64,000 nt of DNA from Burkholderia sp. (GCF_031253835.1 NZ_JAIRVP010000068.1); one strand, 5' to 3'; shown: positions 30,764 through 34,769, counted from the stretch's first letter. Notes: a model not told the origin generated them from the letters alone. Program-made: numbers and translations.

Positions 30764-30911
30764 ATTTATCTCATGGGATAAGAAGCGATCCAATTGTATC
30801 GGATTTTCTGGATGACACATTCACGAAGCGTCGTCCCAAAGAACCTCGCCGAAATAAAATCTCCTTTATTTTCAATGAATTAAAAAATATTCAGAGCGCA
30901 GGCATGCCCAC

Positions 30912-30927
30912 TGGCACGCTCCTCGCT
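30912..30927 (+). promoter_or_regulatory. Sigma-54 (-24/-12) promoter TGGCACgctccTCGCT
   Basis: GG and GC are separated by exactly 10 nt, giving one mismatch to TGGCAC-N5-TTGCW. An AT-rich IHF-like tract (TTCAATGAATTAA) lies just upstream. The promoter is divergent from rtcR and directed at the SPFH-rtcB operon. Confidence 0.55.
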
Positions 30928-31050
30928 AAATAGAAGACGCCGGATGTCCCGCTGGCCCGCGAGCCAGGGTTCACCAAGCCCTGCTGGTGCGCCGCCGCCG
31001 AACCTCGTTCGTCGCGGCAGCGCATGCCGCCATGGACAGATGAAGGCAAA

Positions 31051-31099
31051 GGGGCGCGCGCCAGGATGCCTCGTCCGGGTTCGAATCCCGGAGCGCCCA
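31051..31099 (+). ncRNA. tRNA minihelix-like element: a 6-bp acceptor-like stem plus a T-arm with a TTCGAAT loop
   Basis: GGGCGC(31052-57) pairs with GCGCCC(31093-98), and the T-arm is CCGGG-TTCGAAT-CCCGG (31075-91). Confidence 0.35.
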
Positions 31100-31100
31100 C

Positions 31101-31173
31101 TGTTCGGAAGCTCATTCAGGTAGAGCAGCCGGCGAAAGCCGGTGTGTGGCGGGTTCGAATCCCGTCCGAACGC
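31101..31173 (+). ncRNA. 73-nt tRNA-like element whose anticodon loop is replaced by a GAAA tetraloop (Y-RNA/YrlA-like tRNA mimic)
   Basis: Acceptor TGTTCGG/CCGAACG (7 bp, with a U-G closing pair). D-arm GCTC-ATTCAGGTA-GAGC. Stem GCCGGC-GAAA-GCCGGT. T-arm GCGGG-TTCGAAT-CCCGT. Confidence 0.5.
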
Positions 31174-31430
31174 TGTCCGCAAGGACAGTCTCGTTATGAA
31201 GGCAGTACCCGCCGGTGCGGGCCGACAGGCCCGCCGCGCGCCGGACCGGTTGCGGTTCCGCGCAATCGGCCGGACGGCCGCAGGGCCCGCGCGAATGCGC
31301 ACGACGACGCGATGCAGGAGGCGTCGCCGCGTGCTTCGACGCCGGCCGGCGCGCCGCCCGCCCGATCGCGTCGCACCACGATCCGCACGATGCGCGTCAC
31401 CCGGCGGTCATTGAAAAAAAGGACAAAAAT

Positions 31431-32570: not shown

Positions 32571-32632
32571 TGCAGGACACGGCGCGGCACACGCGTGTCG
32601 CGCCGGACAATCGAATGAATCAGGTGAAGCAA

Positions 32633-33856
32633 ATGAATGACATGGGTTATCAGGTGATGGAACTGGCGAACGGCAAGCCGGTGAAGATGTGGACGCAAGG
32701 CGTCGCCGTCGAGGACGAAGCGCGCGCGCAGTTGCGCAACACCGCGCAGATGCCGTTCGTCTTCAGCCACATCGCGGTGATGCCGGACGTCCATCTCGGC
32801 AAGGGCTCGACGATCGGCAGCGTGATTCCGACGAAAGGCGCGATCATCCCGGCCGCGGTCGGCGTCGACATCGGCTGCGGAATGATGGCCGCACGCACGA
32901 CGCTGACGGCGTCCGACCTGCCGGATTCGCTCGCGGGGCTGCGCAGCGCGATCGAACGCGCGGTGCCGCACGGCCGCGCGCCGGGCCGCCGCGATCCGGG
33001 CGCGTGGGGCGATCGCACGCCGGCCGCCGTGACCGAATCGTGGCAGTCGCTGCAGCCGGGCTTCCAGCGGATCGTCGACAAGTATCCGAAGCTGGAAAAG
33101 ACGAACCACTACGCGCATCTCGGCACGCTCGGCACCGGCAATCACTTCATCGAAGTGTGCATCGACGAAGCGGACCACGTGTGGTTCATGCTGCACAGCG
33201 GCTCGCGCGGCGTCGGCAATGCGATCGGCAGCCTGTTCATCGAACTCGCGCAGGCCGACATGCGCCAGCACATCGCGAACCTGCCGGACCGCAACCTCGC
33301 GTATTTCACCGAAGGCAGCCGGCACTTCGACGATTACGTCGAGGCGGTCGGCTGGGCGCAGGACTACGCGCGGCGCAACCGGCAGGCGATGATGGACGCG
33401 GTGATCGCCGCCGCGCGCGGCGTGATCGCGAAGCCGTTCGCGGTCGACGAGCACGCGGTGAACTGCCACCACAACTACGTGCAGCGCGAACGCCACTTCG
33501 GCGAAGACGTGCTCGTGACGCGCAAGGGGGCGGTGTCCGCGCAGAAGGGGCAACTGGGGATCATCCCGGGCTCGATGGGCGCGAAGAGCTTCATCGTGCG
33601 CGGGCTCGGCAACCCGGAAAGCTTCTGCTCGTGCAGCCACGGCGCGGGCCGGACGATGAGCCGCACCGAAGCGAAGCGCCGCTTCACGGCCGACGACCAG
33701 GTGAAGGCCACGCAGGGTGTCGAATGCCGGAAGGACGCGGGCGTCGTCGACGAAATCCCGATGGCCTACAAGGACATCGACGCGGTGATGGCGGCCCAGC
33801 GCAGCCTCGTCGAAGTGGTGCACACGCTGCGCCAGGTGGTGTGCGTGAAAGGATAG
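32633..33856 (+). CDS. rtcB: RNA-splicing ligase RtcB (3'-phosphate/5'-hydroxyl RNA ligase)
   Basis: The protein is near-collinear with E. coli RtcB (KMWTQGVAVEDEARAQLRNTAQMPFVFSHIAVMPDVHLGKGSTIGSVIPTKGAIIPAAVGVDIGCGM ... RQVVCVKG). The start choice (AGGTGA SD before the ATG at 32633) is uncertain, and 32615 or 32657 are possible. Confidence 0.95.
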   Translation: MNDMGYQVMELANGKPVKMWTQGVAVEDEARAQLRNTAQMPFVFSHIAVMPDVHLGKGSTIGSVIPTKGAIIPAAVGVDIGCGMMAARTTLTASDLPDSLAGLRSAIERAVPHGRAPGRRDPGAWGDRTPAAVTESWQSLQPGFQRIVDKYPKLEKTNHYAHLGTLGTGNHFIEVCIDEADHVWFMLHSGSRGVGNAIGSLFIELAQADMRQHIANLPDRNLAYFTEGSRHFDDYVEAVGWAQDYARRNRQAMMDAVIAAARGVIAKPFAVDEHAVNCHHNYVQRERHFGEDVLVTRKGAVSAQKGQLGIIPGSMGAKSFIVRGLGNPESFCSCSHGAGRTMSRTEAKRRFTADDQVKATQGVECRKDAGVVDEIPMAYKDIDAVMAAQRSLVEVVHTLRQVVCVKG

Positions 33857-33911
33857 CGCGGTGCGCGGCCGATGGCCGGCGGCCGCGCGCAAAGAAAGGG
33901 AAACAACAACC

Positions 33912-34727
33912 ATGAAAACGGAAAACACCATGACGCCCGTGCGCAGCGCGCATCCGGTCGCCCCGGCCGTGCGGGCGCGCGTGATGGCGGAACTCGCGGA
34001 AGTCGAGCGCCGCCACGACGTGAGCGTGCTGTTCGCGTGCGAATCGGGCAGCCGCGGCTGGGGCTTCGCGTCGCCGGACAGCGACTACGACGTGCGCTTC
34101 GTGTACGTGCATCGGCGCGACTGGTACCTGAGCGTCGAAGCGCAACGCGACGTGATCGAGCGGCCGCTCGACGACGAGCTCGACGTGAGCGGCTGGGAGC
34201 TGCGCAAGGCGTTGCAACTGCTGCGCCGCTCGAACCCGACGCTGCTCGAATGGCTCGACTCGCCGGTCGTGTATCGCGAAGATGCACGCTGGGCGCCGCG
34301 GCTCCGCTCGCTGGCGGCGGCATTCTTCTCGCCGGTGCGCGGGCGCCATCACTACCTCGCGATGGCGAAGAAGAACTTTCGCGGCTATCTGCAAGGCGAC
34401 ACGGTGCGTTACAAGAAGTACCTGTACGTGCTGCGGCCGCTGCTCGCGGTGCGCTGGATCGACATGGGGCTCGGCATGCCGCCGATGCGCTTCGTCGATC
34501 TCGTCGACGGCACCGTGCACGAGCCGGCGGTGCGCGCGGAACTCGATGCGTTGCTCGCGCTAAAGATGCGCGCGAACGAAAGCGAGTACGGGCCGCGCCG
34601 GCCCGCGATCCACGCGCTCGTCGAGTCGATGCTCGCCGATGCCGAACACGACCGCGCATACAAGCGGCCGTGGGGCGACGTGGCGATGCTCGACGCGTTC
34701 CTGCGCGACGTGGTCGACTGCCGCTGA
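33912..34727 (+). CDS. Pol-beta-superfamily nucleotidyltransferase of the type associated with RtcB operons
   Basis: The NTase motif is FACESGSRGWGFASPDSDYDVRFVYV (GS...D.D). An AAGGGA SD precedes the start. The gene lies 56 nt after rtcB in the same orientation. Confidence 0.8.
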   Translation: MKTENTMTPVRSAHPVAPAVRARVMAELAEVERRHDVSVLFACESGSRGWGFASPDSDYDVRFVYVHRRDWYLSVEAQRDVIERPLDDELDVSGWELRKALQLLRRSNPTLLEWLDSPVVYREDARWAPRLRSLAAAFFSPVRGRHHYLAMAKKNFRGYLQGDTVRYKKYLYVLRPLLAVRWIDMGLGMPPMRFVDLVDGTVHEPAVRAELDALLALKMRANESEYGPRRPAIHALVESMLADAEHDRAYKRPWGDVAMLDAFLRDVVDCR

Positions 34728-34729
34728 AA

Positions 34730-34769
34730 GACGGACGGCGCGGTGCCTGCGGGCATCGCGCCGTCCGTC
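34730..34769 (+). terminator. 13-bp GC hairpin (GACGGACGGCGCG...CGCGCCGTCCGTC) immediately after the NTase stop; likely the end of the operon
   Basis: It is a perfect inverted repeat with no U-tract, which is common in high-GC genomes. Confidence 0.4.

Follow-up and report, generated by a model that had tools for sequence, protein, structure and literature searches.

The 64-kb stretch of Burkholderia DNA analysed here (referred to as the window, at its full length) carries an RNA-repair locus, in which the activator gene rtcR is divergent from a unit composed of a sigma-54 promoter, a long leader, and the genes for a Band-7 (SPFH) protein, the RNA ligase RtcB and the nucleotidyltransferase RlaP. 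Megablast matches of the window lie on secondary chromosomes of Burkholderia only, plus matches elsewhere that cover rtcB alone, and the window most likely stems from chromosome 2 of a strain of the B. cepacia complex. An earlier reading (the sequence-only reading) had presented the locus as an RtcR/sigma-54-type RNA-repair unit that pairs a tRNA-like RNA with an SPFH protein and a nucleotidyltransferase instead of Ro60 and Y RNA, and this description holds. Moreover, the entire leader of about 490 bases is a conserved, elaborately folded RNA, a feature that appears to have gone unreported so far. The principal features of the locus, in nucleotides (nt) counted from the start of the window, are the following:

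29147-30763, minus strand: rtcR, encoding a sigma-54 enhancer-binding activator with a CARF-like RtcR domain, an AAA+ domain and a helix-turn-helix (HTH); divergent from the operon
30912-30927, plus strand: sigma-54 -24/-12 promoter, TGGCACGCTCCTCGCT, of the form TGGCAC-N5-TCGCT
30953-31032, plus strand: 5' domain of the leader, in which P0 (30953-56 with 31029-32) closes the P2/P3 junction; the AUGCC junction is conserved
30958-30989, plus strand: P2, with a conserved purine-purine mismatch
30990-31022, plus strand: P3, with an inner hairpin and GUCG
31052-31098, plus strand: tRNA-like module 1 (mini), with an acceptor-like stem of 6-7 bp, a short hairpin and the T-arm CCGGG-UUCGAAU-CCCGG, without a D-arm
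31101-31173, plus strand: tRNA-like module 2, a full cloverleaf with the 6-nt CGAAAG in place of a 7-nt anticodon loop; the predicted tRNA associated with band 7 (b7a-tRNA)
31173-31188, plus strand: hairpin after module 2, CUGUCC-GCAA-GGACAG
31209-31408, plus strand: 3' domain of the leader, in which S1 (31209-15 with 31402-08) closes the GNRA-capped S2 (31217-34) and the long irregular rod S3
31431-32570, plus strand: Band-7/SPFH gene, 379 aa, stomatin-like, annotated 'slipin', with a C-terminal helical region
32633-33856, plus strand: rtcB, 3'-phosphate/5'-OH RNA ligase
33912-34727, plus strand: rlaP, RNA ligase-associated pol-beta nucleotidyltransferase, PF10127

Comparisons are based on 151 related Band-7 loci (designated by L and a number): 71 were obtained by searching species-representative genomes with the Band-7 protein, and 80 further loci were taken from at least 550 matches in metagenomes. 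More than 7,700 relatives of the protein are present in databases. Band-7 identity is 88-98% among species of the B. cepacia complex, the nearest relatives (98%) being Burkholderia sp. Bp8992, B. catarinensis and B. seminalis; it amounts to 58-70% in relatives from Rhodocyclales, Thiobacillus and Accumulibacter, and to 39-46% in a few more distant bacteria. The RNA alignments are sequence-based, and the helix counts derived from them, if anything, underestimate pairing in variable regions; misalignment is worst for P1 (57.6% paired) and for the acceptor stem of module 2 (77%). In the controls, termed "slid", pairing partners were displaced along the alignment.

The leader extends over ~490 nt from the predicted transcription start (~30938) to the Band-7 ATG (31431), and the length of ~270 nt given in the sequence-only reading is too short. 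It comprises, in this order, a 5' domain built as a three-way junction, first a mini and then a full tRNA mimic, a hairpin, and a rod domain of ~200 nt. From promoter to ATG, the alignment is conserved throughout, and a coding function is excluded because the insertions and deletions are not multiples of three. Judging from these insertions and deletions, from the covariation and from the differing anticodons of module 2 (both described below), the leader is under structural selection and not under coding or decoding selection. The minimum-free-energy fold of the whole leader has a z of -2.85, and roughly 100 covarying base pairs are found in total.

In the 5' domain, 83.9% of the cells in an alignment of 67 non-redundant sequences are paired, as compared to 34-49% in the slid controls, and none of 500 shuffles reached the observed covariation of 0.416 (against 0.09-0.14). 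Double-sided changes affect all eight pairs of P3. A covariance model built from this alignment, R1, has one match in the window (30923-31037, 91.9 bits, E ~1e-23). Among the 117 related loci that were searched, some of which are without upstream sequence, 93 have a single match upstream of Band-7, including loci outside the training alignment of R1; the E. coli rtc locus gave no match to this model. In the 3' domain, the minimum-free-energy fold of the window sequence gives the S1/S2/S3 topology (z = -2.64), and RNAalifold finds 43 pairs, 32 of them compensatory, in 24 sequences of the RtcR group. The topology is kept with a different sequence in 24 loci without rtcR (53 pairs, 34 compensatory). 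All six pairs of the hairpin after module 2 show double changes as well. The possibility that this hairpin is a conserved terminator, which would release a small RNA (sRNA) of ~255 nt, was rejected, because there is no conserved U tract 3' of the stem; U-rich tails occur in some lineages of the RtcR group only.

Rfam 15 contains no family for the 5' or the 3' domain of the leader. In L088, the 3' domain weakly resembles the Pseudomonas sRNA Sr006 (19.8 bits, E 0.83), which was judged to be due to chance; Sr006 maps to 182.5 kb of the P. aeruginosa genome, a long way from the rtc locus. A UGCCGCC/GGCGGCA pairing between the two domains, which had been spotted by eye, is absent in Burkholderia and was dropped. 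No description of the extended structured leader was found in the literature searched; the study of Burroughs and Aravind from 2016 may hold one.

The central part of the leader contains two copies of the T-arm motif GGGTTCGAATCCC, 74 nt apart, and the two tRNA-like modules proposed in the sequence-only reading are indeed present at 31052-31098 and 31101-31173. In a local E-value scan, module 2 scores 35.7 bits with the Rfam tRNA model (RF00005; gathering score 29, E 8.6e-6), and its counterparts in relatives score 39-70 bits; no Rfam match was obtained for the whole window at the gathering threshold, presumably due to filters in the larger search. ARAGORN reports no tRNA in the window; it rejects module 2 on account of the CGAAAG anticodon loop. 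In an alignment of 64 sequences, pairing amounts to 88.7% of the cells of module 2 (34-42% in the slid controls); covariation is seen at all five pairs of the anticodon stem, pairing in the T stem reaches 100%, and the D arm does not vary. The anticodons, however, vary by locus, with CAT as the commonest next to AAT, GAC, GTT, TTT and GAT, or are replaced by loops of 5-6 nt. Thus, the module exceeds the gathering score for tRNA but has no 7-nt loop, no conserved anticodon and no encoded CCA, the acceptor 3' strand being followed by GCUGUCC. Since the anticodon drifts or its loop is shortened while the stems are kept by compensatory change, the comparative evidence indicates that module 2 is a structural mimic of tRNA, not a decoder.

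Module 1 shares the layout of acceptor stem, one stem-loop and T-arm with mascRNA-menRNA (RF01684), at a score of 23.6 bits versus 42.5, i.e., in shape only. The sequence of its acceptor-like stem is highly variable across relatives. The acceptor complement stands at a fixed distance from the T-arm and is perfect (7/7) in 27 of 71 relatives, as compared to ~5 expected; in L051, L053, L057, L066 and L068, module 1 is a full cloverleaf. The expectation that the tRNA-like modules are conserved and covarying in related genomes is thereby borne out, for module 2 by the 64 sequences and for module 1 by the acceptor complement.

Elements of this kind could, in principle, be decaying, functionless relics of tRNA genes beside the rtc operon, an explanation that would fit with the tRNA score of module 2 and with the genuine tRNA gene arrays that adjoin some related loci. 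It is contradicted by the covariation data and hardly credible: the position, order and spacing of the RNA are conserved from Burkholderia to Rhodocyclales, Thiobacillus-like and distant bacteria with 39-46% Band-7 identity, the stems are held by compensatory changes while the anticodon drifts, the flanking domains covary too, and pairing of 88-100% is not expected of pseudogenes.

The sequence-only reading had proposed Rfam searches for both tRNA and Y RNA, and only the former was productive. Over the region of the two modules (31055-31151), the YrlA model scores 20.7 bits (E 0.09) where its gathering score is 69, and membership in the YrlA family was rejected on these scores. [quoted passage not shown]

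The divergent rtcR of the sequence-only reading is well supported by Pfam (RtcR, 275 bits; Sigma54_activat, 169 bits) and by the NCBIfam equivalog RNA_repair_RtcR (840.6 bits, cutoff 650). The promoter it had pointed out is unique, being the sole match to TGGCAC-N5-TYGCW in the window (chance expectation 0.07), and transcription would start near 30937-30939. Of 77 related loci with a divergent rtcR, 76 carry a sigma-54 element in the corresponding place, as compared to 2 of the 25 without rtcR. Control by RtcR and sigma-54 is supported because the promoter element tracks rtcR across loci, and there is good comparative evidence that both drive the transcript of leader and Band-7 where rtcR is present. 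PADLOC labels the rtcR product as RtcR--CARF_AAA_HTH and recognises RtcR alone, with no match for Band-7, RtcB or RlaP; these three are therefore not catalogued as defence proteins. RtcR of Salmonella is activated by tRNA fragments (PMC7790460), and what is known of induction of the operon by 2',3'-cyclic-phosphate tRNA fragments or RNA damage is confined to Salmonella and E. coli (PMC7790460, PMC9650030).

Nearly all of the ~130 loci for which sufficient upstream sequence is available have T-loop motifs ~250-400 nt before the start of Band-7. In most related loci, rtcB comes after Band-7, and rlaP is present in part of them, varying even from one Burkholderia species to another; the co-conservation with rtcB that the sequence-only reading had envisaged for both genes thus holds for Band-7 in most loci, and for rlaP in part only. 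rtcA occurs in 14 of the 151 loci. About 25 loci are without rtcR, at least 23 of which retain the RNA, and the RNA is also kept in ~12 loci where Band-7 is followed by RlaP with no adjacent rtcB. In this comparison, the pair of RNA and Band-7 is the constant core, none of rtcR, rtcB, rlaP and rtcA being found in every locus. Because the absence of rtcA and the presence of rlaP vary among close relatives, the gene set of the window represents one state of a known modular system.

A group of loci with short leaders (group 3, L131-L151, e.g., L138:3190-3500) has a sigma-54-driven leader of ~310 nt, and in some of these loci Band-7 is directly followed by RlaP. The 5' domain and the mini T-arm are kept in L131-L151, the full cloverleaf is absent, and the 3' structure is different. 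The full tRNA mimic is therefore not a universal core.

Some Band-7 loci without rtcR are situated just downstream of two to nine apparently genuine tRNA genes, as detected by ARAGORN. These tRNA arrays are located at:

L066: 106-761
L082: 1251-1960
L108: 49-1072
L110: 77-1124
L116: 122-280
L092: 2140-2300

In L066, L108, L110 and L116, the tRNA array and the Band-7 leader are separated by a second, divergent RtcB paralog (54-58% identity). In addition, a transfer-messenger RNA (tmRNA) gene is found at L078:1773-2135 (minus strand), ~1 kb upstream of the Band-7 leader, a single metagenomic case that is possibly a coincidence; in E. coli, RtcB is reported to act frequently on tmRNA (Kotta-Loizou et al., 2022, as cited in 10.7554/eLife.94800).

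The presence of tRNA mimics in an operon whose activator responds to tRNA fragments might also be explained if the mimics were decoys or sensors for tRNA-targeting ribotoxins. They could titrate the nuclease, as has been suggested for YrlA, or be cleaved, in which case the 2',3'-cyclic-phosphate fragments would feed back on the CARF domain of RtcR. Consistent with such a role, the D-arm and the T-arm, i.e., the tRNA elbow bound by many proteins, are nearly invariant. However, conservation is lowest in the anticodon loop, at which anticodon nucleases cut; this loop is shortened to 5-6 nt in Burkholderia and several other lineages. Moreover, the RNA persists in the loci without rtcR mentioned above, the group-3 loci have no full cloverleaf, and the large 5' and 3' domains are left unexplained. 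Altogether, a decoy or sensor function is considered improbable.

The main rival explanation concerns the position of the RNA. It is always directly upstream of and co-oriented with Band-7 at a conserved distance, with the 3' strand of S1 at a fixed short distance from a conserved AAGGAG and the ATG, and since the hairpin after module 2 is no conserved terminator, read-through into Band-7 is expected. The leader might accordingly be mainly a cis-acting 5' untranslated region, in which the modules recruit RNase P/RNase Z or similar enzymes and the rod sets mRNA stability or translation; S1 ends ~20 nt before the Shine-Dalgarno sequence, and autoregulatory binding of Band-7 or RtcB might be possible. 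However, ~490 nt, ~100 covarying pairs and two tRNA mimics far exceed what known leaders need, and the Shine-Dalgarno sequence is not sequestered in the consensus fold. Furthermore, the RNA is kept across differing promoters and downstream genes, which points to a partnership with Band-7 and not to one regulatory circuit. As the main function of the leader, regulation in cis is therefore regarded as unlikely, yet it would be compatible with a partner role of the RNA, the two not being exclusive.

The identification of the SPFH/Band-7 gene at 31431-32570 and of the pol-beta nucleotidyltransferase gene at 33912-34727 in the sequence-only reading was confirmed by comparison with hidden Markov models. 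The Band-7 protein matches Pfam Band_7 with 95 bits at residues 150-321, and its best solved relatives are stomatins that form 16-mers; RlaP matches Pfam RlaP (PF10127) with 322 bits and the PHROG nucleotidyltransferase with 309 bits. The N-terminal ~150 residues of the Band-7 protein (31431-31880) match no Pfam or NCBIfam model. They are conserved down to 39% overall identity, with L25, L59, P96, R99 and W103 among the invariant columns (alignment A1), and this region could be an RNA- or partner-binding domain in place of the classical stomatin membrane anchor. Hydropathy reaches a maximum of 1.38 at residues 140-158, which is below the transmembrane threshold of 1.6, and the protein is predicted to be without a transmembrane helix. 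The Band-7 match is longer in L032, L033 and L065 (4001-5587), which belong to B. stagnalis, B. pyrrocinia MSMB1755 and Burkholderia sp. SRS-46: it covers 1587 nt, as compared to the usual 1137 nt, and is split into two overlapping tblastn segments, which suggests an internal insertion or duplication of ~450 nt in the gene.

RtcB is evident from Pfam (435 bits) and from 67% identity to E. coli RtcB over 410 aa. The gene had thus been recognised in the sequence-only reading, with a start that needs correction: it is most likely the ATG at 32633, with AGGTGA as Shine-Dalgarno sequence, and rtcB hence begins within 63 nt of the Band-7 gene. Another ATG in the same frame, at 32570, shares bases with the stop codon of Band-7 (TAATG, 32568-32572). 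The leader, Band-7, rtcB and rlaP are co-oriented and presumably form a single transcript, in which two further hairpins would be located:

33863-33888, plus strand: rtcB-rlaP intercistronic hairpin, a 9-bp GC stem read from the sequence
34730-34769, plus strand: closing hairpin, a 13-bp GC stem without a U tract

The GC hairpin that was said to close the unit is present, but it does not have the form of a canonical intrinsic terminator and was not called in a terminator scan. The absence of rtcA and of Ro/Rsr could be substantiated: a tblastn search with E. coli RtcA revealed no homolog in the 64-kb window (best E 0.26), and Pfam detected no TROVE domain in any operon protein. Downstream of the operon, a DUF1176 gene (34956-36113) is found that adjoins rtcB or rlaP in most Burkholderia loci; because it stays in place with or without rlaP, rlaP looks like an insertion or deletion between fixed neighbours. 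Operons of the Rhodocyclales type contain a treble-clef zinc-finger gene (PF13451) between Band-7 and RtcB; between RtcB and RlaP, they encode either a HEAT-repeat protein or one of 241 aa that matches no Pfam model. Judging by their position, the inserted proteins may be further subunits of the system; the extra genes are located at:

L036: 5137-5712
L041: 5171-5617
L041: 6898-8310
L036: 7050-7775

The abstract of the 2016 study by Burroughs and Aravind reportedly describes SPFH/Band-7 modules that include "a novel tRNA-like molecule" as well as a new nucleotidyltransferase associated with ligases; the latter is RlaP. According to the quotation in 10.1101/312249, these authors found a Band-7 protein, a predicted "band 7-associated tRNA" and RtcB together, and proposed Band-7 and b7a-tRNA as the counterpart of Ro and Y RNA. 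The name of the RlaP family (PF10127) refers to its link with RNA ligases, and a biochemical characterisation appeared in 2025: RlaP of P. fluorescens and P. aeruginosa adds one or two nucleoside monophosphates to 3'-OH ends of RNA, and the function of over-trimmed tRNA can be restored (PMC12776372). In P. aeruginosa PAO1 and PA14, the arrangement is rtcR / PA4582-rtcB-PA4584-rtcA (PMC8619066, PMC13086221), where PA4582 is the SPFH protein PaFlo8 (PMC13086221). In view of these reports, the first of them as quoted in 10.1101/312249, the claim that the locus is a distinct and undescribed flavour of RNA-damage response does not stand. The accompanying statement that the non-coding RNA (ncRNA) and the SPFH protein are without a described function remains appropriate, in that neither has an experimentally shown function.

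The locus of the window can thus be placed among several known systems. With the module of Burroughs and Aravind it shares Band-7 beside RtcB, a tRNA-like ncRNA, frequent RlaP and optional RtcR; here, however, the ~490-nt RNA is made up of five conserved structural parts, of which the cloverleaf is one, and the anticodon loop of the cloverleaf is cut to 6 nt in Burkholderia. The P. aeruginosa rtc locus has the same order, with divergent rtcR followed by the genes for SPFH, RtcB and RlaP (PA4584), but carries rtcA at the end of the operon, for which no counterpart exists in the 64-kb window. The Salmonella rsr-yrlBA-rtcBA operon is alike in its control by RtcR and sigma-54, in RtcB and in an operon-encoded ncRNA with tRNA mimicry. 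It encodes the Ro60 ortholog Rsr together with YrlA and YrlB, whereas the operon of the window is without Rsr/TROVE, and its RNA is four times longer and lies 5' of the first gene. Finally, E. coli rtcBA has the RtcR equivalog, the sigma-54 promoter and the RtcB that is 67% identical; in contrast to the window, it includes rtcA and is without Band-7, RlaP and a structured leader.

That the locus is identical in kind to the known Band-7 system is very probable. The fuller interpretation, according to which it is a B. cepacia-complex member of a Band-7/SPFH-centred RNA-repair system under the control of RtcR and sigma-54, with a partner role for the RNA, is on balance considered probable. By analogy to Salmonella, RNA damage would generate 2',3'-cyclic-phosphate tRNA fragments that activate RtcR. 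The leader, either whole or after cutting by RNase P or RNase Z-type enzymes at the tRNA-like modules, might then bind the oligomeric Band-7 protein, and the resulting ribonucleoprotein could serve as a scaffold or cofactor that presents broken tRNA or rRNA. RtcB would ligate the presented RNA, and RlaP, where present, would restore nucleotides at the 3' end. Band-7 and the leader RNA would thereby fill the role that has been proposed for Ro60 (Rsr) and Y RNA (YrlA) in the enterobacterial rsr-yrlBA-rtcBA operon. Precedents for such a sequence of events are provided by the 16-mer stomatin relatives, the activation of RtcR by tRNA fragments, the activity of RlaP, and the proposal of Burroughs and Aravind. 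The scaffold mechanism itself is plausible, if somewhat doubtful.

Several observations weigh against this interpretation. The leader is located in cis just 5' of the Band-7 Shine-Dalgarno sequence with no conserved terminator in between, and a purely cis-regulatory role fits this position equally well. The Band-7 protein might, after all, associate with the membrane via the weakly hydrophobic residues 140-158. Its structure prediction, which is based on an alignment of near-identical Burkholderia homologs only, has a mean predicted local distance difference test (pLDDT) score of 33.9, which is too low for an RNA-binding surface to be located. The b7a-tRNA has never been validated experimentally, as stated in 10.1101/312249. 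The products of RlaP carry a 3'-OH, an end that RtcB is unable to join directly, and their compatibility with RtcB is left unresolved in PMC12776372. Finally, deletion of PaFlo8 in P. aeruginosa caused no phenotype in the assays of growth, virulence factors, motility, biofilm and oxidative stress reported in PMC13086221, among which RNA damage does not feature.

A more far-reaching version of the partner role is offered tentatively and with greater doubt than the scaffold mechanism: the b7a-tRNA might be one module of an uncatalogued RNA of ~450-500 nt, which would be a dedicated subunit of a repair particle built around a cytoplasmic, stomatin-like cage or ring. In this large-subunit version, the universal core would consist of the 5' domain and the mini T-arm instead of the full cloverleaf, because the group-3 loci keep both and lack the cloverleaf. 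Ro-Y RNA and vault particles are conceptual parallels of the proposed Band-7 repair ribonucleoprotein.

The operon is a member of a described, yet experimentally unexplored RNA-repair system. Taken alone, it adds little, being a further case of a system that was predicted in 2016 and is present in P. aeruginosa. What goes beyond the literature searched is the nature of the ncRNA partner, which the comparative analysis portrays as a large, multi-domain structured RNA absent from Rfam, with ~0.5 kb and roughly 100 covarying pairs, much more than a single tRNA mimic would have. Bacterial RNAs of such size and intricate folding are rare, and they usually signal unusual biochemistry. With its defined helices and boundaries, and with a covariance model for the 5' domain, the comparative analysis provides a basis for the design of experiments in tractable strains of Burkholderia or Pseudomonas.

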